From Octopus vulgaris (lineage: Eukaryota), in contig OX597827.1 of assembly GCA_951406725.2 (NCBI GenBank), positions 73,036,001 to 73,100,000 on the forward strand: a stretch of DNA of 64,000 nt, written 5' to 3'. The translations under genes and the position numbers were made by a program. Under the pieces are notes generated by a model, which did no database searches, was not told where the DNA came from, and saw only the letters and a program-made list of their open reading frames with translations. Positions 20,307 to 55,050 of the stretch are shown here, in pieces. The first letter of the stretch is position 1. Each line of letters starts with the position of its first letter.

Positions 20307-21441
20307 CAAGAATTGGACAAAATAATGGAAACACCTAGCATCATAGCATCATAACTTTGAAATATCTATTAAACCGTCAAAAGCTTGTTTATTTTTATGT
20401 TTTTTGATCTATTATTAGTGTTGCTTAATATGTTTTGCTAAAATTGCTGTTTCTTTTCAGATATCATCAGAAATAGATAATTAAAATTCATTAAAATGAC
20501 AGATCTATCGGACTTTCAAAGAGGTCAAATTGTTGGCGCTCGTATGGCAGACACTAGAAGTACTGTCTCGAAAGTAATGACAGCCTTTGGGAAAGAGGGA
20601 AAAACCTCCTTGTCAAAACAAAACTCCGAAAGAAAACCAAAATTTTCAGATAGGGACCGTCGGTCTCTTACGCGAATTGTTAGAAAGGATCACAAAAGTA
20701 CAGCTTCCAAAATTACTGCGGAGCTTAATGACCTCGAGAACCCAGTTTCCACAAAAATTGGTCGCCGGGAGCAGCACAAAGTCGGATTTCACATGAGAGC
20801 TGCAATCAGAAAACCACTACATTCAAAAACAGATGTTGCAAAGCGTTTAGAGTGGAGTAAAAACTCACAGAATTGGTCCCTAGAGCCGTGGAAGAATGTT
20901 ATTTTCTCGGAGTGTCATCCTTTACCTTATTTCCGACAACCGGCCAAGTATACGTGTGGAGACAGCCGAAAGAATCATTTGACCCAGACTGCCTTCTTCC
21001 AACTGTTAAATATGGAGGAGGGTCTGTGATGATCTGGGCGGGGCTATATCATGGAAATCCGCCGGCCCAATGGTTTCCCTTCATGGCAGGATTTATAGTC
21101 TAGACTATTTAAGCATTTTATCTGATCACGAAGAACATTCTAGTGAAGTTCAATATCTTATCTTACCACCACAGTTCCTAGAACTCAATATTATTGAACA
21201 TTTATGGAGCATTTTAGAAAAACAAGTAAGGAGTCGATATCCTCTATCATCCTCATTACAAGAACTGGAGACTGTTTTAGTTGAAGAATGGACAAAATCC
21301 TTTGGAAACAATTCAAACTTTGTACGGAGTCCGTACCTCGTAGAATTGAAGCAGTAATTACTGCCAAAGGCGGTCCTATCCCGCATTAAAATAAATTTGT
21401 TTGAAATTTTAAGGTGTTTCCATTACTTTGTCCAACCCCTA
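20307..21441 (+). mobile_element. Tc1-family DNA transposon with decayed transposase
   Basis: ~30-bp TIRs (ttggacaaaataatggaaacacct / aggtgtttccattactttgtccaa), TA flanks; DLSDFQRGQIVGAR, WKNVIFS, PTVKYGGGSVMIW, LNIIEHLWS motifs split by frameshifts and deletions. Confidence 0.93.
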
Positions 21442-21713: not shown

Positions 21714-23490
21714 GCAAACACAGAATCACATATAGACATGCACACGCACACGTACACACGCATGAATGCATTTGTCGGTGTGCGCGCGTGTGTGTATGTA
21801 TCAACATTAATATACGAACACAGTTATGTAAGAATAACGAAATAGATAGAAGAAAGAAGTCGGCAAGATTTAGGGTGGATCACCATTTGCATTTATTTAC
21901 CAGTTTATACCACATTACCGAAGTAATTATCCAGGATATTTATGTTCAAGTTCTATATGACATCTTGGGTGACTTGGAGTGTCTTTACTATATTTTGTAT
22001 CTTTTCTTATCTCTCTTCTTTATTGTTTATTGTAGTATAGATATCTCTTCATTATGTAACTTATTTACCAGTTTAGCAAATGTCCAGCACATTCGATCGA
22101 CTCGTTACATTAGCCAATAAATCCGGCAATGATTTCTGTCTTTGTCTCAGTGGCAAATATTCTTTCCTAATCTAGGCACAAGGCCCGAAATTTTGGGGGA
22201 GGGCGCCAGTCGATTAGATCGTTCCCAGTGCGCAATTGGTACTTAATTTATCGACTTCGAAAGGATGAAAGGCAAAGTCGACCTCAGCGGAATTTGAACT
22301 CAGAACATTAAGACAGACGAAATACTGGTGAGCATTTCGCCCGGAGTGCTAACGCTTCTGCCAGCTCGCCGCCTTTCACAGGCAAATATTGTTACTCTTT
22401 GTATTTTGCGATTTTCTTAATCTGTTAAATTCAATTTCTTTTGTTAGCCATCAATAATTAAGATTTTTCTCGCATAATATTATTTTGTTTTGTACATGAT
22501 ATCACTGCCTGTCCTGCTGCTATAATATTTGCTGGGAAGTATAAGAATTTGTGTCAGTCTCAAATATGCTAAATTTTATGCCATTATTATCGCATGATTG
22601 CATGCTATGTCAGTTATATCTGTACGATAAAATTTATGTAATATCTGTATGACAAAAGTTATGGTGAATCAGGAATAGACTTAAAATAGATGTTAATTTT
22701 GTCTTAAATGCTACAGACGTTGTCATCAATAGAGATATCAGTAACCATTTTATTCGTATTCCTCTTAAGTTTTAAGATTATAAGAAGTTTAATTACCAGT
22801 TGCAAATAATATATATCATACGTTTATTCCTATGTATGTTATAGTAGAATTTCACTCTACTTTCAGACTTTCTTAGCTTTTAATCACTTAAGGTTTCTAC
22901 ATATTTAGTCTTCTTCGATATATTCGAGTCTTCTTCTGCAATTTTAGTTTAGTTAGTCTTCTTGTAAATGCTCTTGTGCTTCATTCGTTTTGACTGAAAC
23001 AAATGATTATCGGCTTTTCCTTTGAGTCGGTTAATATCTGACTAAAATGGAACTATTGTTGTAGTTGTTTCTGCTGCAAATCGCTGTTAACTCCATTACA
23101 ACTTCTAATAGACTTGCTGATTCTGCCCTTCAAGTTTACCCACTCATTTTGTCTCCTAGCTCTAAGTGTATCAAGTGGAAGGTTCTCAGAAAAAGGGACC
23201 AATGAAGTGTTTTCTATACTCATACTACTTGGATATTTATCTAAATAACTATTATTGTCACCTAAGTGTCAACTAGATCTTGTATGGTTAACTTCAAAAG
23301 TTTTATCGGACGAATGTACAGATAAATTTTTAGTATACAAGTATTCTAAAAGCCGTCGCTAGTTATTGTTTTTCAAATCTTTCTTGCATCTATATTACGT
23401 TTAGTTTGCTTCTACCGTGTATAAAGGATGAGCCAAAAATCACGAATGTTTATTTTCATTTCTGAATGGGTTTCGTTCTCCAATAAAATA

Positions 23491-25120
23491 TCATTGGCGA
23501 TTAGCTGAAGTCAAATTACCTTGCGACTGCTTAAAGTATCCGCTCAACTTCGATAATATGCTTCCCCAATTTTGTCTCTTAACTTCGTTCTGTTTCTTAT
23601 TTTTCTGAGAGGAATTAAGCTTATTTGCAGACGACATTTTTATCCATGACACTGATTTTTTCAAATCAAAATTATTCTTTAAAGTTTCATTACTCGTGTT
23701 ATTCAGGTTATTCATCTTGTGCAGAAATGATGCCAAAAGTGAAAAAAGACTGCTGTTGTTCTTACTGCTTAATTTAGACCCCAAATTTAATAAAAATAGT
23801 TTGGCTGTCTTTTTCAAATGTTTTGGTGTTTCCATATTCTTTTTCCCATGCTGTAAGGCAGAAGGACTGTTCGTTTGCTTGGATTTTGGCTGGCTTTGAG
23901 CAGCATTGACTCCACTTCGTTTGATCAGTTTCAATTTTGGATAAGGGGAAGATATGTCAGTCCTTAGTCTATCTTTAAGGGTTTCTAAATATACCTTGTA
24001 CTCATAATCTTGAAGTGTTTCCGGATAAATAATATTTGATGTTCCGTCTGAAAAGTCTTCGCAAATTCCAAATCTTTTTGAAGAAAAAGGCAAGAAAAAC
24101 GCAACTTCACATGACTCGGGAAGGGGAATTGCGGAACTATTCTCCAAACGTTTATTTTGTGATATTAATTTCAGTTGAACATAATTTTGAATGTTGGGGG
24201 CTTGTGTGGCGGCGTATTTCGTCAACCAATTCGATGTCTGTTTCCAGTCCGCTTGTTGACGTTTTAATCTTTTAGATTTTTGAGATGGTGTATCAATTCT
24301 ATTTGGCTGAGCATGTTTCCAGGTTTGTTCAGCTTGAAGCAAATATTGCATGCGATGCTGTTGTTGCACTCGAATTTGAATATTTCTCCATGGAAAGTTT
24401 ACTTTCTGAGGCCGAGGATGGGAACTCTTTCGTTGAGGTAATCCTTTTCTATAAGCGGCTTTGATATCGTCAACAGCTTCCTTGTGTTTAGTAACCTTGA
24501 TCTTTTTCGGTAAGGGTTTTCTCAATACTTTCTGAGGCCGAGGATGGGAACTCTTTCGTTGAGGTAATCCTTTTCTATAAGCAGCTTTGATATCCTCAAC
24601 AGCTTCCTTTTGTTTAGTAACCTTGATCTTTTTCGGTAAGGGTTTTCTCAATAACTTCAACAGTGGTTCCAAAGGGATATTATTTATTCTCCTACCTGTC
24701 GTAGTAGGAATAATTTTGCTAAACTGTTTCCTCTTTCTCGTAGAAAGAGAATCAGTAACATTGGGATTAGTAACAATAGTTTTATTGTTAATCGACGTCA
24801 CGTTACTATTCTTTCCACTTCTCAAAAACTTTGAAGCCTTCCGAATACTTCTGTCCCGGAAGTATGTGATTTTTTTCTTCAAACCGTTGTAATGCATGAA
24901 AAACTGTTGAAGATTTTGGTACTTTCTTTCACCAGCACATTTGCTAGATGGATGTTGTACACACTGTAAATTTTCTGCTGTGATGTTATTCTTCCGTAAG
25001 ATTTCTCGCCACAGAGACAGCTGTTCAAATTTTTCAATCATATTTCGGGGTACAGCACGACAGCCACTTTTAGACAAAAATACGTTTTTCACTGGACAAA
25101 CATGGCAACTACCGCGAGGA
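23491..25120 (-). CDS. Terminal coding exon 4: Cys cluster then long Lys/Arg-rich tail with dibasic sites
   Basis: Acceptor ttttatcttctcag|T completes CG|T=Arg (phase 2); 1630-nt open non-microsatellite frame to TGA at 23491-23493; all three introns phase-consistent, total 2433 nt = 810 aa; no transmembrane segment seen. Confidence 0.85.
24401..24652 (-). repeat. In-frame 126-bp (42-aa) tandem duplication in exon 4
   Basis: LRKPLPKKIKVTK(Q/H)KEAV(E/D)DIKAAYRKGLPQRKSSHPRPQKV x2; units 24401-24526 and 24527-24652. Confidence 0.95.
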
Positions 25121-25272
25121 CTGAGAAGATAAAATAAAATAAAATAAAAAAGGAAGATTATAGTCAAGAAACATCAAAATATATCTGGAATAGGATTTCA
25201 CCCTAACCCCGGCAAGTAAAAGCTCAATAAGTGACATTTTCACCAAGTGTCACAACATAGCAAGTATTATAT

Positions 25273-25865
25273 GTTTCTTTATTACCCACAAGGGGCTAAA
25301 CATAGAGGGGACAAACAAGGACAGACAAACGGATTAAGTCGATTACATCGACCCCAGTGCGTAACTGGTACTTAATTTATCGACCCCGAAAGGATGAAAG
25401 AAAAGTCGATCTCGGCGGAATTTGAACTCAGAACGTAGCGACGGGCGAAATACCACGAAGCACTTCGCCCGGCGTGCTAACGTCTCTGCCAGTAAGTATT
25501 AATATAGCAAGTACGAACTAAATGTGTATGTGTGTGTGTGTATGTGAGCGTGCGTGTGTGTGTATATCAATGTGAATGTGTACATGTGTGTGTGTATATA
25601 TATATATGTGGATGAATGTGTATAAATGTGTATATAAGGCGGCGAGCTGGCAGAAACGTTAGCATGCTGGGCGAAATGCTTAGCGGTATTTCGTCTGCCG
25701 TTACGTTCCGAGTTCAAATTCCGCCGTGGTCGACTTTGCCTTTAATCCTTTCGGGGTCGATTAAATAAATACCAGTTACGCACTGGGGTCGATATAATCG
25801 ACTTAATCTCTTTGTCTCTCCTTGTTTGTCCTCTCTGTGTTTAGCCCCTTGTGGGTAGTAAAGAA
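25273..25865. mobile_element. Head-to-head inverted pair of SINE A copies in the last intron of the LRR gene
   Basis: 25273-25492 (-) and 25638-25865 (+). Confidence 0.88.
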
Positions 25866-25948
25866 AAAGAATGTGTATATATATGTGTGCATGTAGGTGT
25901 GTATGTGCATGTGTGTGTGTATATATGTGTATATATGCGTTTGTATAC

Positions 25949-25997
<49 letters not shown>

Positions 25998-27870
25998 TGT
26001 GTGTATATGCGTGCATATATGTTTGTGTATATATATATATATATATGCGTGTATATGTGTATTATATGTGCGTGTATATGTGTGTATATATATGTGCGAG
26101 TGTGTATATGTATAGATGTGTGAGTATATGTGTGTGTATGTGTATATGTTTGTATATATATGCGTGTGTTTATATGTGTGCGTGTATATATATATATATA
26201 TATGTATATGTGTCTGTGTATATATATATGTGTGTATATATATGTGTGAGTATGTATGTGAGTGTGTGTGTGTGTATGTGTGTATGTGTGTTTGCGTGAA
26301 TGTTAGCAGTTGCTAATTTGTGGCATTTGCTGGAATGTTACCTGTTGAGTTTTTGCTTGGTGAGCTGTGATGCTCTCTTAGGATATATACCTAAAAACAA
26401 ACAAGGTTTTCTGGACAGCAAAAAAATATCCACTATCTGTTTAATAAACCCCTTCCTTTCTGATTTAGTCACATTTCCAGTAATCTTGAAGGGAGGAGTG
26501 GGGTCATTCAGTACCATCAAACTCGGTGGTAAACTGGTACGTTATTTTATCTGCCACGGTGGTGGGGGGGATGAAAGTTGGCCTCGACGGGATTTGAACT
26601 TAGAATGTAAAGAACCAGAAGAGATACCGCGAATCCCTTTTTTTCCTGACGCCCTAATAATTCTGTAAGCTAATACAATCCATTGAATTTATAAGACCGC
26701 GAACAGTTCTCTTTGTGGACACCGAAAAAAAAAATTTATTTATAACATTTAAATACAAAGAAACAAGAAAAGAAAAACCGAGTGATAAAAAGGAAAATAA
26801 ATACAAGGAAAAAATAAATAAAATGGGGGGGGGGGGGTAAAGCAGCAGAAGATGGAGTTGGAGGGAGCGATGGAACACATACGGGCCACATACCTATTTC
26901 TTTATTACCCACAAGGGGCTAAACACAGAGGGGACAAACAAGGACAGACATAGGTATTAAGTCGATTACATCGACCTCAGTGCGTAACTGGTACTTAATT
27001 TATCTACTCCGAAAGGTTGAAAGGCATAGGCGACCTCGGCGGAATTTGAACTCACAACTCCCCGCATCAAATGGTGTGCCTAACCGGACCCGTCGGTCAT
27101 GACCGCGACGGCGTTGCCACGGAGAATGGCTAGTGACACTCGCCGTAGAAGCCTCTCCACGTCGCGGGACTCATTTATTCAGACAGGCCACTGGTATCCC
27201 TATATAATGGTTTGTATTTTATTGCTAGGTGGAGGTGTAAGACAGAGATCAGACTCAAATCTCAACCGATGTAAAATATGGACAAATGCAACATGACAGT
27301 GTTGTTAACAAGTTTGTTATGCGGTCAGGTCGATAAATTAAGTACCAGTTGCGTACTGGGGTCGATCTAATCAAATAGCCCCTCCCACCAAAATTTTTGG
27401 CCTTGTGCCTAGAGTAGAAAAGAATGTATGTGATGCTAAAAAAAATGACAGGGTGGGGTCTGGTTCGTATGGTTTTTGATCGTAGGTGTTTGTACGAAAA
27501 GGCTGACCTGGGACTAAGCAACAACAACAACAACAACATTATTGACAACGACGACGACGATGACGGCGTGAACTACTGCAACAACAATAACAACAATATA
27601 TGCATGTAGGTATACATTGACATGCGCATGCGTACACATATGGCCCCATACACACGCATACATATTCGGGCACACACACACACACATACATTAAGTAAAA
27701 CATAGTGGGATAATCATTATCATTGTTGTCCTCATCGTCACCATCACCATCATCATCATAGTCATCATCGCAGTGATGATGGTGGTGGTGGTGGTGGTGG
27801 TGGCCGTCGTCGTCGTGGTAGTCGTCAAAGATTTCAAGGAAACACAGGAGAACTAAGAGTAATATCCTAC

Positions 27871-28168
27871 CGGCAGATGCTCTTCAGATATCTCCTATTG
27901 ACAGGTATTTCACGTGATTCAGATAGAAGGTAGCACCTGTTGTTTGAAATATTGTGCGCAGAAAGCCAAGACAATCTTTTGTTACATATCAACCGATTCT
28001 CGATAAAGGAGAATACAGGTTTCTCCTGACATCCCAAATCGGCGATTGTATTTCCTTGGAAGACCACATTCTTACTGAGGTAATCATCGTCCGAAAACAA
28101 ACCCGGTTCCAAGGTGGACACATTGCAATGAATCAGTTGAAATACCTCTATGTTTGCTTGGTGGAAAG
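27871..28168 (-). CDS. Coding exon 3 of secreted LRR protein (LRR units and C-cap-like segment)
   Basis: Acceptor tctccacag|CT completes G|CT=Ala (phase 1); AFHQANIEVFQLIHCNVSTLEPGLF...FQGNTIADL...IENRLICNKRLSWL (resembles NPxxCxCxLxWL cap); donor TGCCG|gtagga, phase 2; 298 nt. Confidence 0.85.
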
Positions 28169-28671
28169 CTGTGGAGATATGTAAGTAAAAATATAGGTAA
28201 GATATATATATATACAATAGATAATGTAGCGTATTTTCCGGTATACAAGTCGAATTTTGCAGCGTGGAAGGTGTTTGTAAGCCATTTAAGAAACACACAA
28301 AAGCCGTTCGATTCACTTCAACATTTAAGTTTAATTTGTCAAAATATTTTCTTCGCTAAAATCTGCGACCTGTTCACTGACAAGAATCCGTGGTGCATCT
28401 CATCCAGCACACGATCTCAGATCAAATCACTTGCTATGCGAGTACATCTCCGTAAGTCGAATTTTTCAAGCCGAAAATTTACAGCTAAAAAAAGCTTGGT
28501 CGACTTATACTCTGAGACGACTTTGAAGGACGAACGATTCCATGTGAAATTGCAGTAGGATTTGGAAAGATAGTGACAATGTTTGAATGGTATGCTGCAC
28601 GTATACGCTATGGAATACGTCGACTTGTATGGCGGAAAATACGGTTGGTGAAATAATTATTAATAATAATA

Positions 28672-29060
28672 GGCGCAGGAGTGGCTGTGTAGTAGGTAGC
28701 TTGCGTACCAATCACATGGTTCTGGGTTCAGTCCCACTGCGTGGCACCTTGGGCAAGTGTCTTCTACTATAGCCTCGGGCCGACCAAAGCCTTGTAAGTG
28801 GATTTAGTAGACGGAAACTGAAAGAAGCCCGTCGTATATATATATATATATACATGTTTGTGTCTCCGTGTTTGTCCCCCCAGCATCGCTTGACAATCGA
28901 TGCTGATGTGGTTACGTCCCCGTAACCTAGCGGTTCGGCAAAAAAGAGACCGATAGAATAAGTACTGGGCTTACAAAGAATAAGTCCTGGGGTCGATTTG
29001 CTCGACTAAAGGCGGTGCTCCAGCATGGCCGCAGTCAAATGACTGAAACAAGTAAAAGAG
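28672..29060 (+). mobile_element. tRNA-derived CORE-type SINE family B with internal TA/TG tract
   Basis: ggcgcaggagtggctgtg head, gggttcagtccc B box, gcaccttgggcaagtgtctt CORE-like block, tail gactgaaacaagtaaaaga. Other copies: 4379-4757, 7555-8002 (-), 10405-10735 (-), 20133-20290, 35555-36090, 39935-40285 (-), 50435-50930 (-), 51900-52063 (-), 54333-55340. Confidence 0.9.
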
Positions 29061-29571
29061 TAATATAATAAATAAAGCAGTGAGCTGGCAGAATCGTTTG
29101 CCCGCGGACAAAATGTTTTGCGGTATTTTCGTTTGTCGTTGTGTTCTGAGTCCAAATTCTGTGAAAGTCGACTTTGTCCTTCATCCTTTCGGGGTCGATA
29201 AAATAAGTAGCGGTTGGGCACTGGGGGTCGATGTAATCAACTTGAGCTTTCTCTCAAAATTTTTTACCCCTGTGCCAAAATTTGAAATTAATAAATATAA
29301 AAGATTAAAAAAATTAATAAATATAAATTAAACTAAAATAATACATGAATTTTTTTTTACAAATAAATGAGAATTATATAAAATGAATAAGAAAAAGGCA
29401 AATGGCATAAATTTGTAGTAACTCTTTCTAATTTTGATACAAGGATAGCAATTTTGAGGGAAGGGGTTAGTTGCTTTATTTTATCGCGCCTGGAAAATGA
29501 CAGGCAAAGTTGAACCAGGCGGGATTTGAACTCAGAACAAAACTAATCGGAAGAAATGTCAGTGTATCGTC

Positions 29572-29637
<66 letters not shown>

Positions 29638-29638
29638 G

Positions 29639-30142
<504 letters not shown>

Positions 30143-30153
30143 GGATGAGGATG

Positions 30154-30187
<34 letters not shown>

Positions 30188-30339
30188 GGATGAGGATGAT
30201 GATGATGATGATGATGATGATTTCATTTATTTGTAACAAGAATGAATAATAACAGGAACAAAAATAATGATAGCGAATAAATAAATGTGTACAGTAAAAA
30301 ACGTAAATATAACAAATAAAAAGAAATAGAAAATAATAT

Positions 30340-30746
30340 TAATAATATTGATTTGGTCATCGTCTGTAGTGGATGGTCTGCATGATCGCTCTTTATCAAT
30401 AAGGTTACAATCTCCAGCTCGGAACCTTGCGAACCACTTCCGTACAGTTTTTTCGGATAAAGAAACATCACCGTAAACTGCGCATATTTCTTTGATTGCT
30501 TGTGAGACATTTTTCCCTTTACGGAAAAAGAAAAGCAACAAGTACCGAAAATGAACTTCCATTTTAAAGGGTTACAGAATTAACACAAGTTATAGGAACA
30601 TAAACCTTCTTCCACGAAAAGATAGGTTAAACTGTGCTCTAAATGGAGGTGTAGTCAAATCCTATTTTAAGGACTCAAACATGTTCTAAGATAAGTCGAA
30701 AGGTAAGCTTCTATAAATCGGCACGAACTTTCCGGATCACCCAATA
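30340..30746 (-). mobile_element. Mariner 5' fragment (TIR and HTH DNA-binding region)
   Basis: HFRYLLLFFFRKGKNVSQAIKEICAVYGD..SEKTVRKWFARFRAGD; TIR-like tattgggtgatccggaaagttcgtgc. Confidence 0.85.
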
Positions 30747-30831
30747 CATTTATAGATACGGTCACACGCTGGAAGACACACACACACATGCACACACGTA
30801 TATACATATTTATTTAAATTAAGCTACTTAC

Positions 30832-30976
30832 CTTGGCTTTCCAGGAGTTTGATGTTCGATTGGCTGATTGTAAAATAACGGATTGACGTAGAGAAGAAAG
30901 CAAATCTCTCAATAAACCAAATATGTCCTTGGTGGAAGTGGAACGATTCCAGTTCAGATGTCGAGAATGACGCACA
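30832..30976 (-). CDS. Coding exon 2 of secreted LRR protein (two LRR-like units)
   Basis: Acceptor tctacttcag|TGT (phase 0, matches exon 1); CASFSTSELESFHFHQGHIWFIERFAFFSTSIRYFTISQSNIKLLESQ; donor CAAG|gtaagt, phase 1; 145 nt. Confidence 0.85.
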
Positions 30977-31173
30977 CTGAAGTAGACAACATATACAAAG
31001 GACAGTTTGTGACACGGCTTAATAAGTCAGTACACATATGCGCGAGCGCGGATCTACGCATACATGCATGCACATAAACACACTTTCGCTCTCTTTCTCG
31101 CAATATCTATATATATATGTGCGTGTGTGTGTGTTTGGGTGTGTGCCTCTGTGTGTGTGAGTGTCTCATATCG

Positions 31174-31219
31174 CTTCTTATGATGGAATATCCTTCATAT
31201 TCCTGAAACAGCTGTAAGG
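31174..31219 (+). ncRNA. Decayed hammerhead motif inside an intron of the LRR gene (antisense to it)
   Basis: ctt CTTATGA t ggaata..tattcc t GAAA c-agct-g TA agg; one core substitution (G5 to U). Confidence 0.5.
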
Positions 31220-32200
31220 CTACTTTTCTCTTTAGAAATGTCCTAGAAATTTCACACTACCTTGGCCTTGTTGTCTCATTTTATTTAACACACACACACA
31301 CACACGCGCGCGCGCACACACGTGGTTTTGGCCGGCCCAAGGCTATAGTAACAGACGCTTGACCAAAGTGCCACGCGGTGGGAATGAACACGGAAGCATG
31401 TGGTTGGGAAGTAGACTCCCTACCACACGGCCACGCCTGTTCCTATATCATATGCTAGAAAATAGAGGAGCGTCTTGAAGCTTTACCCAAGAGGGGCCGA
31501 GAATCGCTTGTACAGATACCCGTAGGACTCCGTTGGAAAACCACTGCTCATTTTACACTCTAGTAAACTTTGTCACTACAAGAAAAAGGGAAGTAAGAAG
31601 TAGCACATCAGGATATCGAGATATTCTCAGACGAAATATATGATGCGAACATTTACAAAAGTGTGGACTCAGTCAAAGAATCTGAAGGGTCAGGTGAAGG
31701 TTTTAAAACTTAGCAATAGATTAGGGTTATTAACAAACAACATATTCTAGTGATTTTGAGAGAGGACAATACTTTTTCAGCGGAACTAAATAATTACTCT
31801 CATTAATACACACATAGATGCACACCATATGTACACACATACACATACATACACACCCAAAACACACACACACGCACACATAGTCATTCAGCACACATAT
31901 GCGTGTAGCACACGTACACAGATACGCACACATACACTTATATAAATATACATATTGGCACAAGGCCAGCAATGACATAAGGATGGGTGGCGGTTGTTAA
32001 GTCGATTACGTCGACCTCAGTACATGACTGGTACTTATTTTATCGACTCCGAAATAATGAAAGGCAAAATCGACCTCAGCAGAATTTTAACTCAGAACCT
32101 AAGGCCGGACGAAATGCTACTAAGCATTTTCTCCGGCGTGCTCACGATTCTGCCAGCTCGTCGCTTTCATATATATATTAATATGCTTCAAATAGATTAC

Positions 32201-32560
32201 CTTAAACCTTTTAATTCGACTTTTTTCGAAGTAAAGTCTCTCAACTATTACGTTTCCGAAAAAGCAATCTGTCATTGAGGTCGTCTTCAGGTTCAAAAAG
32301 GTTATGTTGAGACGGTTCGAAGTATTAAATCCTTCACATGGCAGATACGGTCGTGACAAATTAGCGATAACTACCGATGTAATGTTTGGTGGTACGAGTA
32401 AAGGAAAAGTTAAATTGTTGCCTGTACAAGTCATTTCTATTAAAGAACATTCGCAGTCTGAACTGCAGGGTGTTTCCACTGTTGACACTGCTTTCAATGT
32501 TTCCTGCCCAGACGATTGCAACAACCAGAACAAAATTATGGCGGATATTTTACTTTGCAT
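32201..32560 (-). CDS. Coding exon 1 of a predicted secreted LRR protein (signal peptide, LRR N-cap, first repeats)
   Basis: MQSKISAIILFWLLQSSG signal-like start, CSSDCECSLIEMTC N-cap; acceptor ttttattcactttcag 9 nt upstream of the ATG (exon starts 32569, so a 5' UTR exon lies further upstream); donor AAG|gtaatc at 32200, phase 0; 120 codons. Confidence 0.85.
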
Positions 32561-33382
32561 ATTTGTAGTCTGAAAGTGAATAAAAGCAAAAAGTTACCAA
32601 GAGATAATTGGTTCAAACTTAGAAAAACATAATCTTCGCTAATTTCTTCAGAAGAACGCTTCTATGAAATGGAGGTCTTTCTTAACATTTCATTAGTCAT
32701 TTGGTCACCATTGAAGACATCTTATTTTATGCAATGTGTCCTAGATAATTAAGCCTCAAAGACTCAGTTTCTCACTCTCTCACTCAATATCTCTCTGTTT
32801 TTCACTCTTTCTCTCTTGTTCTCTCTCTCTCTTCCAGAATATGGATTACAATGAGAAATCACAGGAACAATGATTGAGTATAGTGAAATAGCTCAAAAAG
32901 TAATCGAACCAGCTTCACAAACTCAACATTCTGCAAGCATATTTTTTCTGAATTTGACACATCATCAGCCGTTTTTAAGGGCAGGGGTAAATCGATTACA
33001 TCGACAGCAGTGCTTCACTTTCACGTATTTTATCGACTTTGAAAGTATAAAAGGCAAAGAGTTGGGCAGCATTATGGAAGCGTAATACACAAGGATTTGA
33101 ACCCGCTTCATACACTTGCCTTTTCGGAAATTTAACCTCTAGAAACGGAACCACTTCATAGGTCAGCCTTTCAAGAAGTTTTCCTCCTCCCCAAAATGTT
33201 TGTTTGGAATTTATATATTTCTACTACTTTTAATCCATTTATATATGAACATGGAACATGTGTACGAAGCATTCTTTTTGTGGATGTAGCTGAACACATT
33301 TTGATTCCGAAACAACCAACGGCACCTACACAGACATGGAATTAAAAATCTAGTTCTTCTTCTCTTCAAAACTAACGACAGG

Positions 33383-35553: not shown

Positions 35554-36632
35554 GATGCAATCGTGGCTGTGTGGTAAGAAGCTTGCTTTCAAACCGCATG
35601 GTTCTGGGTTCAGTCCCACTGTGTGGCACCTTGAGCAAGTGTCTTTTACTATAGGCTCGGGCCGACCAAAGCCTTGTGAGTGGATTTGGTAGACGGAAAC
35701 TGAAAGAAGCCTGCCGTATATATATATATATAAGAACCTGAACAAGAATAGAGAAAATGACATCTTTAATGATTACAGCATCTGCCTAGATTTATTAATC
35801 CGTTTTACCTCTTGTTGTGTGTGTGTGTATGTGCGTGCGTGTGTGTACGTGTATAAATATTTACATGTGTGTATGTGTGTGTATTTGTGTTTGTGTTTGT
35901 GACGCACCACCGCTTGACAACCAGTGCTGGTGTGTTTACGTCCTCGGCAAAAGTACTCTTCGGCAAAAGTAACCGACAGACTAAGTACCAGGCTTTAAAA
36001 AAAATATAAGAGCTGTGTTGATGCGTTCGACTAAAATTCTTCAAGGAGGTGCCCCAACATGGCCGCAGTCTAATGATTGAAACAGTTCAAAGAGAAATGT
36101 CTTATAAAAGCAGACGAATGGGTTATCTGTGAGCGCTAGCATATTTTATTTAACAATTCTATGGTGATATAACATCGTATATGCAGCTATGTTCGACGTG
36201 CGTCAACTATGAGATTATGCAATGCATTACAGTGAGTCTCTCAACTCTTCAGGCGCCACCGTAATGCAGGTAAGCAAATAATTGGTTATGCTGTCAAATT
36301 TTAAAGCCCAACAGCATATGAACATCCATAGCGAGCAATGCAAACAGTTCGAATATGGAAGTTGACAGAAATATAATCGGCTAATCGGAATCGTAGGTAG
36401 TCGAACTGGGCTGCCAAAGAGATTGACACCAAAATTGGTGTCAAGTTAGATATGTGGAAGCTGACCAAATATAATTGATTAGAACAAAAAACACAAAAAC
36501 AAAAAAAAAAGAGAAAAGGTTGAAAGTTGTGTATGTATGTATGTATGTATGTATGTATGTATGTATGTATGTATCACTAAATCAATCAATCAATCACTCA
36601 CTCAATCAATCAATCACTCACTCACTCAATCA

Positions 36633-36723
<91 letters not shown>

Positions 36724-36724
<1 letters not shown>

Positions 36725-38320
36725 GGACCGACGGCCCGGTTGAGTTGCTCGGGGTCTGGTTTGGTCCGGACCTCCAAGTGGAGAAGAACTGGAACGAGAT
36801 AACGAGTAGGGTGGTCACTCTCGCCCGGCAATGGGCCGAGAGGAAACTGTCCCTAAAAGGTCGAGCGGAGGTGGCGAACACGTACATCGCGTCCGTCATC
36901 TACTACCGCCTGACCGTCGTACCTTGTCCCGACCCTACCATCACCAAACTACAACGCATCCTCTTTCGCTTCTTGTGGAAAGGATGCGTCCCGATGGTCA
37001 GGCGATCCATTTGCTGTCAACACCCGTTAAAAGGAGGGCTGGGCATGCCGTGGTTGATGATGCGCAGACACGCGCTGAGACTGCGGCATCTCTGGCTCTA
37101 TGTAGACGACGGTGAACAGGTGTGGTCGCCGTTTGTGAGGCACGCTTTCCCGCAGCTCGTCTCCATGACCGAACTGCAGTCGTGGATCAAAAAGAGGCCG
37201 AGGAAGGGCGAATGGCACCGCGAGTGTCGCGTTGCTCTCAAGCAACTCTGCCGTCCTGGGTCGACCTTAAGTGACTTCAACACAACCAAAGCATTCTATA
37301 GGGGTTTAGTGGAGGGGAGGTACGACGACGAGCTCGGGGCGAACCTGGACGTCGACGAGGAGTACCTGACCCGCCTGTTCAGGACGACCTTCGGGCCAGG
37401 GCCCATGGACAACTTCCAGAGATCCCTGGCCTGGCAGTGCTACCGAGAAGCGCTACCCGTTCGGGATAAGCTCTACAGACACGGCTCGAGAAACACGGGG
37501 CCGACCTGCCCGAGATGCGGTCAGAGCGACGAAACCGTTCTGCACGCACTCGTTCAGTGCCCAACAATTTCCGACCTGTGGGCTTATGTCGAACAACTGC
37601 TGTCACGTGTGGGACGAGTCGGTTTATCAGCTGAGTCTATCGTCAATATTGTCACGCCTCCTTCCTTCAAACGGGAAGGAAGAGCTATTTTCATCATCCT
37701 TGTGGCTATGGCGAAAGAATGTATCTGGTGGACGCGTCTGAAAGGATTGGAGACAAACACTTTCCTCTCTGGTCAATCTCTCATCAACTTCTTCAAGTAC
37801 CACTTGAAAAGGAAAGTGAGAGTAGAGAGGCAAGTTTTGTCTAGCGAATGTTTTAAAAAAAGATGGGTGAATGTAGCAAGAATGGCACGTATGAATGACG
37901 AAGCCACCTTGAGCATAGTCCTATGAACCCAGAAATCGAAAACAGAGAGTTGCTTATTTGCAAAAAAAAAAAAAAAAAAAAAAAAAAAGAAATATAAAAT
38001 GTGACTTCATTGACCGAGGTTACCGTGGTCTTTTCCGTAGGCTTTTCTTTCCACGGGTAAACCTCACCTGTCCTCCCCTTTACACTTCATATTGACATTT
38101 CTGTGATAACGATCCATATTGATCAATTTTTTTTTTTTTTTTTTCCTCTCCCCCTTTTTTTTAACCCCCTTTTTTTTGTCCTCTTTCTCTCCTTTTACGA
38201 TCCCTTTTGATCGAAACTCCCCCTTCCTTTTTTTTTTTTTTTTTTTTTAAACCTTCAAAAGAAAAGCTCTACCTTGTAATTTGTTCTATCTGTGTGCAGC
38301 CCTGTGTGGCTAATAAAGAA
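36724..38320 (+). mobile_element. 5'-truncated Tx1/L1-group LINE inserted in (TCTA)n
   Basis: Uninterrupted ORF2 C-terminus 36724-37926: LLGVWFG, LSLKGRA, GGLGMP, CPRC..ETVLHALVQCP zinc knuckle; GC-rich; 3' UTR ends aataaagaaa; (TCTA)n on both sides. Confidence 0.9.
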
Positions 38321-45056: not shown

Positions 45057-45404
45057 ACACTCATATACATATGCGCAGCAGATTGTCCTAGTGATTGAAG
45101 AACACCCAGCCTTATTCTTCTATGAAAACCAATATTGCAATGGAAATTTCGAAGACGAGAGATTGGTCTTGGCCAGGCTGTGCAGTTCACTGTCCCTGCC
45201 AATCTTTATTCTGCCGCCAGAGGCCGCCAGATGTGCAGACAAAAGAAATTATTCTCCAGCAGCGCAAGCACTGCCTGTCGACCAAAATACGAAGCTGTCA
45301 TCTGTTGTAATAATTGTCTTTGACCATAGAAACTCTCACTGCTGCTGCTGCTGTTGTTGTTGTTGTTGTTGTATATGTCGTTGTTGCAGTCGTAGTCGTC
45401 GTCA

Positions 45405-45573
45405 TTTATGATGCTAGTGGTGGTGTTGATGGTGGTCATAGTGATGAGGAGGACGGCGACGACGACGATGATGAATGATGGCACTGATGATGAATATGAT
45501 GAAGATGACGACGATGATGATGATGATGATGATGATGATTATGATGAAGATGACGATGAAGATGATGATGATA

Positions 45574-45611
<38 letters not shown>

Positions 45612-45663
45612 AAAGATGATAATGAAGATGATCATGATGATGATCATGATGATGATGATCATC

Positions 45664-45728
<65 letters not shown>

Positions 45729-45776
45729 AAAGATGATAATGAAGAAGATGATGATGATGATAAAGATGATAATGAA

Positions 45777-45839
<63 letters not shown>

Positions 45840-46050
45840 GATGATGATGAAGAAGATGATGATCATGATGATGATGATGATGATGATAAAGATGATAATG
45901 AAGATGATGATGATGATGATGATGATGATGATAATGATGAAGATGATGATGAAGATAATGATGAAGATGATAATGATGATGATGATGATGATGATGATGA
46001 TGCTGATGAAGATGATGGTGATGATGATTATGACAATGACCATTATTTGA
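45405..46050. repeat. Long degenerate (GAT)n microsatellite
   Basis: Direct observation. Confidence 0.95.
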
Positions 46051-46095
46051 AGCAATACTGCATGCAGGTGACAAATCAAAGTCTATTTTTGTTCG

Positions 46096-46156
<61 letters not shown>

Positions 46157-54321: not shown

Positions 54322-54452
54322 CATATATATATAGGCGCAGGAGTGGCTGTGTGGTAAGCAGCTTGCTTACCAACCACAAAGTTCCGGATTCAGTCCCATT
54401 GCGTGGCACCTTGTGAGTGGATTTGGTAGACGGAAACTGAAAGAAGCCCGTC

Positions 54453-54490
<38 letters not shown>

Positions 54491-54491
<1 letters not shown>

Positions 54492-55050
54492 GACAAAACA
54501 TCTCCAGAATTGAGTCACCCCAGAGGGCACTCACTAAACAAATTGAAGGCATGGCTGCTCTCGATTATTGGGATCGCCTTAAAGCCTTGAAACTTTACTC
54601 CCTCCAGCGTCGCCGTGAGCGGTACATTATTTGTACGATGTGGAAAATATACCGCCAACTTTGCCCAAACGACCTAAACATTAGCTTCAAGGTTCATCCA
54701 AGACTTGGACCACGGGCTATACATCCCCTGCCCAATTCAAGATCACAACATACATGTACACTGCAACATAATTTCTTTTCCTCAACAGGCCCTGCCCTAT
54801 TTAACATTGTCCCGAGGGAGATCAAAGAGGAAAAGGATCCCATCAACTTTAAACAGAGTCTGGATAGATTCCTTCAAAGAATACCAGATAAGCCACCCAT
54901 AATTGGATACAACTCACCCAACAAGAACTCACTACTTGAACAAAACTTGACTTAAACAGGATTCGAATAATCCTATCAGGTGGTGCTATTAATTTAGACA
55001 TGGCCTGGACCAATCTTTGGTCGAAACATATCTAAGTTTATCTAAGTCTA

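Follow-up and report, generated by a model that had tools for sequence, protein, structure and literature searches.

On the minus strand of a window of 64,000 nucleotides from Octopus vulgaris (GenBank assembly GCA_951406725.2, contig OX597827.1, positions 73,036,001 to 73,100,000; coordinates below are those of the window), one reading frame runs through four coding exons between 32569 and 23491, with GT-AG borders at every intron and no internal stop in its 810 residues. A product of about 91 kDa is predicted. Judged by its sequence, the gene is real and intact, and it is already annotated, as uncharacterised. Its product combines a repeat-bearing head with a cluster of cysteines and a long, strongly basic tail. 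We propose, with a probability of about one half, that this is a secreted, fast-evolving leucine-rich repeat (LRR) protein whose head would bind a partner and whose tail would lie on polyanions, with probable clipping at one to three sites. The gene structure, the repeats, the charge, the absence of a transmembrane helix and the pattern of conservation are seen in the sequences; secretion, the LRR fold, the hold on polyanions and cleavage are inferred.

Gene structure and relatives

Coding exon 1 (32201..32569, ATG at 32560; residues 1-120) encodes the likely signal peptide together with the start codon (32507..32560, residues 1-18, predicted cut SSG↓Q), a cysteine cap and the first repeats. 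The central 23-residue repeats lie in exon 2 (30832..30976, residues 121-169), and the last repeats in exon 3 (27871..28168, residues 169-268), which also holds a degenerate segment with C230, C247 and C267 that we take to be C-cap-like. Exon 4 (23491..25120) contributes the cysteine cluster and the basic tail up to the stop codon (23493-23491), beyond which a probable 3' untranslated region (22700..23493) carries polyadenylation hexamers at 23454, 22884, 22828, 22793 and 22754. Since exon 1 begins with an acceptor at 32569, there should be a further exon upstream. All of these features are on the minus strand. The outer coordinates of the preliminary description of this locus, which had proposed a frame with an LRR-type head, a cysteine cluster and a K/R-rich tail lacking a transmembrane helix, were recovered here, and the tail measures 481 residues.

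Two orthologues are on record, both as uncharacterized proteins. The Octopus sinensis RefSeq protein XP_036365303.1 (LOC118766127; UniRef A0A7E6FCQ0) is identical at 801 of 810 residues and at all three junctions, and differs by 40 extra N-terminal residues with an upstream ATG; 36 of these, which derive from 5' of exon 1, were not found within the 64-kb window. The Octopus bimaculoides protein XP_014772096.1 (LOC106870499; 522 residues) starts late in exon 3, joins exon 3 to exon 4 and is 76% identical to the tail over 435 aligned residues, but it is without the head and a 42-residue duplication and has another sequence after the RLKR site described below. The assembly protein P0003 (446 residues) starts inside exon 4 and spans most of it, and the database entry for the window's own protein, P0001, starts at M343. 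The joining of the exons is taken from RefSeq gene models and splice sites, not from reads. Contigs from 4 of the 24 listed runs (two studies, presumed to be of RNA), compared over 22700-25260 only, span a large part of exon 4 together with sequence beyond the stop, some of them reaching 22700 or further; none enters the intron past 25120, and no splice joint is listed in that interval.

Of 7871 candidates compared with exon 4, three proteins matched: that of the window itself, that of O. bimaculoides and P0003. None of 93 candidates among longer proteins matched exon 1 and none of 427 shorter ones matched the head, a blank that is weak because even P0003, which overlaps the query, was missed. 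When exon 3 was compared with 1.84 billion representatives, the three matches were bacterial-type repeat proteins (DUF5122, PKD, Por tail) that we judged spurious. The named homologues are all from Octopus, which agrees with the lineage-specific module proposed earlier; this apparent restriction is provisional, since the searches are insensitive. Literature searches did not find the gene or protein identifiers, and topic searches found no paper on the gene. It is absent from the supplements of PMC10138644, PMC9476566 and PMC9258296, from the accessible part of those of PMC9712504, and from those of PMC11202624, which carry no gene tables.

The repeat head and the basic tail

Residues 1-18 are likely a signal peptide: a hydrophobic stretch occupies residues 5-14, no other 9-mer in the protein is as hydrophobic as residues 5-13, and SSG↓Q follows. 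The signal, judged by hydropathy alone, is weaker than the preliminary description had claimed. It precedes the cysteine cap C32-x3-C36-x-C38-x6-C45 (32467-32426), whose pattern Cx3CxCx6C is, in the accessible part of PMC8305803, the cap motif of class I small leucine-rich proteoglycans (SLRPs). Residues 60-225 form seven degenerate repeats of 21-26 residues each, in which the hxxhxh strand pattern is present. Self-alignment of residues 50-230, a region picked by eye, peaks at a lag of 23 (z 6.1; none of 2000 shuffles as high), whereas the tail has no comparable period peak (best z 2.7).

The nearest neighbours of the head by features in the ESM Atlas are LRR proteins (best score 0.93). Its Atlas model (mean predicted local distance difference test (pLDDT) 0.49) gives template modelling (TM) scores of 0.54-0.61 by query against LRR proteins, although a cluster named for beta-helices also reaches 0.61. 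We consider an LRR-type solenoid the likely fold of the head on these grounds. Of the solenoid with caps described earlier, the 23-residue repeats and the N-terminal cysteine cap thus hold, while the family score stays below the Pfam cut-off.

The head is followed by a cysteine cluster (C273, C276, C288, C321, C329) with a short helical subdomain (24874..25107, residues 273-350), for which single-sequence AlphaFold2 predicts three helices at a pLDDT of about 55-75; a fold search with this model (VIA-align) gave no clear match or family (best Z 4.0). Residues 248-333 are identical to O. bimaculoides at 73 of 85 positions. Nine cysteines between residues 247 and 621, out of 19 in the whole protein, are conserved wherever the relatives align.

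The tail (residues 330-810) consists of 20.4% K+R and 6.0% D+E and carries a net charge of +69, compared with 16.4% K+R and +77 for the whole protein and 16.7% and +76 for the mature form. The basic bias persists in the tails of relatives (91 K+R against 25 D+E, and 78 against 30). No 19-residue Kyte-Doolittle window exceeds 1.44 anywhere in the protein, which contains no transmembrane helix or seven-transmembrane (7TM) domain; in this the cationic tail is as first described. N-glycan sequons are enriched in the tail (11 against 5.8 expected, P 0.02). The tail is predicted to be disordered with isolated helices: FoldIndex is negative across most of 300-570 and 650-810, and an AlphaFold2 model of exon 4 from three sequences has a pLDDT below 50 at 517 of 542 residues (mean 35.7). 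No family or fold exceeded the cut-offs of the Pfam, NCBIfam and PDB sequence searches, and the ESM Atlas gave no usable match for the tail (TM at most 0.20 by query). Its most basic part, predicted to be disordered, spans 24259..24924 (residues 334-555) and includes RKRK (24738-24727). Here a recent in-frame tandem duplication of 126 nucleotides (42 residues; 24400..24653), with copies alike at 120 of 126 positions, is common to the window and O. sinensis and missing from O. bimaculoides and P0003. Three of the nine differences between the window and O. sinensis lie in its first copy.

Basic sites and conservation along the tail

The preliminary description had placed cleavage-like sites at RLKR, VKR, RKRK and IKR↓SG, two of them followed by Gln- and Trp-bearing units, and all four motifs are where it put them (RLKR from 24270, the KR of VKR at 23580, RKRK at 24738-24727, IKR↓SG at 23925-23917). 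RxK/RR is the furin consensus, and an upstream Arg is tolerated. A search of the protein for this pattern returns positions 115 and 552 only, so that RLKR (24259..24270, residues 552-555) is its sole occurrence in the tail; RKRK does not fit. The RLKR site is polybasic in all relatives (RFKRR, KLKRR), and at IKR↓SG (23917..23925; dibasic, residues 668-669) the residues KR↓SG are identical in all four sequences. O. bimaculoides and P0003 both retain the basic clusters at 396-399, 551-555, 616-617 and 668-669, which makes some cleavage by a convertase plausible. Residues of KR or RR pairs are still basic at 16 of 16 aligned positions in O. bimaculoides and at 12 of 14 in P0003. Cuts at RKRK, RLKR, IKR and VKR would yield pieces of 381, 156, 114, 114 and 27 residues. 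Cleavage is most plausible at the clusters retained at 396-399, 552-555 and 668-669; KR and RR pairs as such are not enriched.

Conservation along the tail is uneven. Windows of 15 residues match O. bimaculoides at a median of 12 positions, and the lowest of 406 windows fall on unit 1, the segment after RLKR (24214..24258, residues 556-570). There, identity is 5 of 15 in O. bimaculoides and 1 of 8 in P0003, Arg replaces Gln in both, and the sequence after the basic site reads RYVPRIW and RSSPMKE, respectively. Unit 2, a terminal predicted helix that together with VKR occupies 23524..23583 (residues 781-800; pLDDT about 50 with three sequences), is identical at 14 of 17 residues in O. bimaculoides, which is about the background level, and at 15 of 17 in O. 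sinensis, and is missing from P0003. Two of the nine residues at which O. sinensis differs from the window lie in the 17 residues of unit 2 (23524-23574). The most conserved core of the tail (24034..24186, residues 580-630), with C605 and C621, is identical at 47 of 51 positions in O. bimaculoides and 37 of 51 in P0003; AlphaFold2, Pfam and the ESM Atlas gave no confident model, fold or family for it.

Elsewhere, the DNA of the window is rich in microsatellites. Intron 2 contains a 5' fragment of a mariner transposase (30230-30571, minus strand; Mos1-type HTH_48, E 2e-20) that ends in a long ATC/ATT microsatellite, and a unit of about 95 nucleotides present three times, spaced by (ATT)n tracts (29570-30060). 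A broken Tc1-type transposase in two frames (20481-21357, plus strand; HTH_Tnp_Tc3_2, DDE_3) lies about 2 kb past the 3' end of the gene. The 3' part of the open reading frame of a non-long-terminal-repeat retrotransposon (36475-37926, plus strand; zf-RVT E 4e-8) is GC-rich relative to its surroundings. Two 3' fragments resembling long interspersed elements (1758-2574 and 54335-54955, both plus strand) appear related to each other by eye and had no match in a Pfam search. A long (GAT)n-type microsatellite at 45400-46100 gives rise to a likely non-coding open frame of 274 residues of poly-Asp.

A proposed secreted protein held on polyanions, and its alternatives

In the reading that we favor, the protein would enter the secretory route by means of its signal peptide and would probably be N-glycosylated. 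A protein partner is the predicted ligand of the degenerate LRR head, and the long basic tail, with its predicted disorder, would hold the protein on polyanions, for example bacterial surfaces, mucus or the sulfated glycans of a matrix. A convertase would probably clip one to three of the conserved basic sites, which would produce a few large pieces. The earlier characterization of the protein as secreted, LRR-headed, cationic and free of transmembrane helices is supported by hydropathy, by the repeats, by the net charge and by the Kyte-Doolittle profile.

Several observations weigh against this reading. The Asn of the LxxLxLxxN consensus is replaced by S, G, S and C in the four central repeats. 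Pfam finds LRR_5 on exon 2 only, at E 0.019 and 15.3 bits against a cut-off of 27.7, and nothing above cut-off on the full 810-residue protein, and a PDB sequence search with the head gave no match. The best ESM match has 160 of 256 features in common with the head, fewer than the 170 typical of matches within a family, and the single-sequence AlphaFold2 model of the head is unfolded (mean pLDDT 37.8, below 50 at residues 1-279). With regard to secretion, the O. sinensis model places 40 residues ahead of the signal peptide; and since XP_014772096.1 and P0003 are without the head, only the window and O. sinensis show it fused to the tail. With regard to cleavage, the retention of KR and RR pairs does not significantly exceed that of the remaining basic residues (Fisher P 0.10 and 0.34). 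Finally, a purely electrostatic tail would not explain the conserved core at 580-630.

It is possible, though in our view unlikely, that the protein is instead a convertase-activated proprotein. Cuts at RLKR (555) and IKR↓SG (669) would free a near-neutral fragment of 114 residues with two cysteines, acting as a signal or recognition ligand with a species-variable N-terminus, and the head and basic stretch would serve as carrier and anchor. Both flanking sites are conserved in all four sequences, and the fragment is the only long piece of the tail that is near neutral (net +2) and contains the conserved core. No part of the tail diverges more than the seven codons that follow RLKR (24258-24238): to arrive at the residues of O. 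bimaculoides they require a minimum of 10 nucleotide changes, the highest value among 479 windows, with a permutation P of 0.0005 in a test that ignores the clustering of variable sites. Compared with P0003 the same segment is again the top window, but at P 0.16, and the deletion that P0003 carries here fits a relaxed linker equally well. The segment may thus be either a relaxed linker or a selected N-terminus exposed by cleavage. It also counts against an activated fragment that a third KR, within the cysteine loop (616-617), is conserved too, and that the core matched no fold or family in the searches run. As a source of the divergence we considered a local inversion and did not accept it, since it failed to improve the match to O. 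bimaculoides (null 0.6) and improved that to P0003 marginally (0.03). A perfect inverted repeat of 7 nucleotides, spotted by eye, flanks the segment (24268-24219). A bolder version, to which we give only a small chance, is a recognition protein parked by head and tail on the coat of mucus, eggs or spermatophores, in which cleavage at RLKR would bare a species-specific N-terminus on a conserved, disulfide-bonded domain of 114 residues that acts as a fast-evolving mate or species ligand.

The preliminary description had gone further and read the tail as a prohormone-like polyprotein, from which short cationic peptides with pyroglutamate and Trp (QQADW..., QNWGS...) would be freed to act as antimicrobials or pheromones, each site being followed by an amphipathic helix. 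This now appears doubtful. The sites exist, and when the tail is shuffled 20,000 times the pattern [KR]RQ..W, which was defined post hoc, stands out (2 against 0.03 expected, P 0.0004); [KR]RQ alone (2 against 0.46, P 0.07), KR/RR pairs (8 against 6.1, P 0.24) and RxK/RR (1 against 0.36, P 0.30) are not clearly enriched. Unit 2 is C-terminal, predicted to be helical and largely kept in O. bimaculoides, and the Sepia sex-pheromone (SP) precursors, as far as the accessible part of PMC3484142 goes, show that cephalopods have the mechanism, albeit with precursors of 248-252 residues, pieces of 1-8 kDa and no mention of an LRR. The Gln and Trp after each site are true of the window, but the Gln of unit 1 is absent from O. 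bimaculoides and P0003, two of the three relatives, an outcome that the description itself had named as refuting; unit 2 is missing from one of the three. The two units are not related, as 15% of 3945 random pairs of tail segments match their similarity, and they are not conserved as a pair. Their hydrophobic moments rank just 57th and 55th of 470 tail windows, which does not bear out amphipathic helices, and their net charges are +1 and +2. Downstream of unit 1 the next basic pair does not come until 591, amidation signals (G-K/R-K/R) occur at 410 and 693 only, and the predicted pieces are large. In peptide precursors the peptides are the conserved parts and the spacers less so; the pattern here is the reverse, because unit 1 is the conservation minimum of the tail. 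Five short peptides were not found in one skin-mucus proteome supplement (PMC10138644), which covers that tissue alone.

Less likely still, the tail might be a basic protein of the cell interior, perhaps of the nucleus, made mostly from a shorter transcript or from a start further in (M343, or the exon-3 Met in O. bimaculoides), with the full LRR form minor or confined to one lineage. Of the four database sequences, three are without the head, the searches turned up no further head sequence, and the basic clusters of the tail resemble nuclear signals. However, the three starts all differ, as truncated models would, and the blank head search carries little weight. The nine retained cysteines and the excess of sequons fit a secretory route, and exons 1-3 are open, cleanly spliced and near-identical in O. 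sinensis.

Very unlikely, finally, is the ectodomain of an LGR-, Toll- or adhesion-GPCR-like receptor (GPCR, G-protein-coupled receptor) whose membrane part was lost or is supplied through splicing at a latent donor close to the stop (AAG↓GTAATT, 23520/23519): all four runs, presumed to be of RNA, read through this donor unspliced and three of them bridge the stop, which gives no support to a spliced-on membrane exon. The RefSeq models of two species terminate at the same stop. Downstream there are 10 hydrophobic stretches, a density no higher than upstream, where a longer region holds 18; they resemble the noise of introns. The motif FGICEDF is reminiscent of the LGR hinge, a likeness we rejected as it reads CEEF in two of the three relatives and no transmembrane helix follows. 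One ESM neighbour set is named for the lutropin receptor (0.91), and octopus adhesion GPCRs with LRRs do exist according to the accessible part of PMC6408891.

Comparison with known systems

The gene adds an uncharacterised, fast-evolving, putatively secreted LRR protein of unusual architecture to the octopus secretome. While this kind of protein is not surprising, it is a candidate for proteomic studies of mucus, egg coats or immunity. If the segment after the furin-type site is indeed positively selected and exposed by cleavage, it would provide a testable species-recognition ligand in octopods.

The LRR proteins closest to the head in the ESM Atlas carry automatic cluster names (Oplophorus-luciferin 2-monooxygenase non-catalytic subunit-like, slit-like, coil-less LRIM) and score 0.92-0.93. 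With 154-165 of 256 features in common, the likeness is only distant: Pfam LRR_8 is found in 98-100% of their members, whereas the head here is under every LRR cut-off, and at 312-428 residues they have no room for a tail of 480.

A parallel in proposed working mode is offered by PRELP, whose basic N-terminus binds heparin and heparan sulfate, and chondroadherin, which binds heparan sulfate. As described in the accessible part of PMC4859157, these proteins combine a secreted LRR core with an N-terminal four-cysteine cap and a basic terminal region, as the octopus protein would. The octopus protein has about seven degenerate repeats instead of the 12 of classes I-II and no recognised ear repeat, and its basic region extends over 480 residues where theirs is a short end; there is no sequence match. 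Of the features that define an SLRP it has the cap, but not the 12 LRRs and terminal ear repeat (LRRCE), its approximately seven repeats being followed by 540 residues.

In cephalopods, the egg-case proteins SepECP1 and SepECP2 of Sepia officinalis are secreted, N-glycosylated and bacteriostatic, with 14-17% K+R and charges of +42 to +70 according to the accessible part of PMC4500399. Compared by composition only, their 17.2% and 14.3% K+R and net charges of +70 and +42 are close to the 16.4% and +77 found here, although they lack repeats and have 50-55 cysteines, arranged in three Cys-rich domains, as opposed to 19 cysteines and a predicted repeat solenoid. The Sepia SP-alpha, alpha' and beta precursors, secreted proteins of another cephalopod, have dibasic sites like the octopus protein and a signal peptide, which is likely there too. 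In the accessible text of PMC3484142 they are cut into 5-7 pieces whose products were seen by mass spectrometry, whereas the octopus protein has 810 residues and conserved sites 110-380 residues apart, and its processing is proposed from sequence. The octopus protein is a member of neither the PRELP/chondroadherin nor the egg-case family, but would resemble the former in its working mode and the latter in its bulk chemistry.

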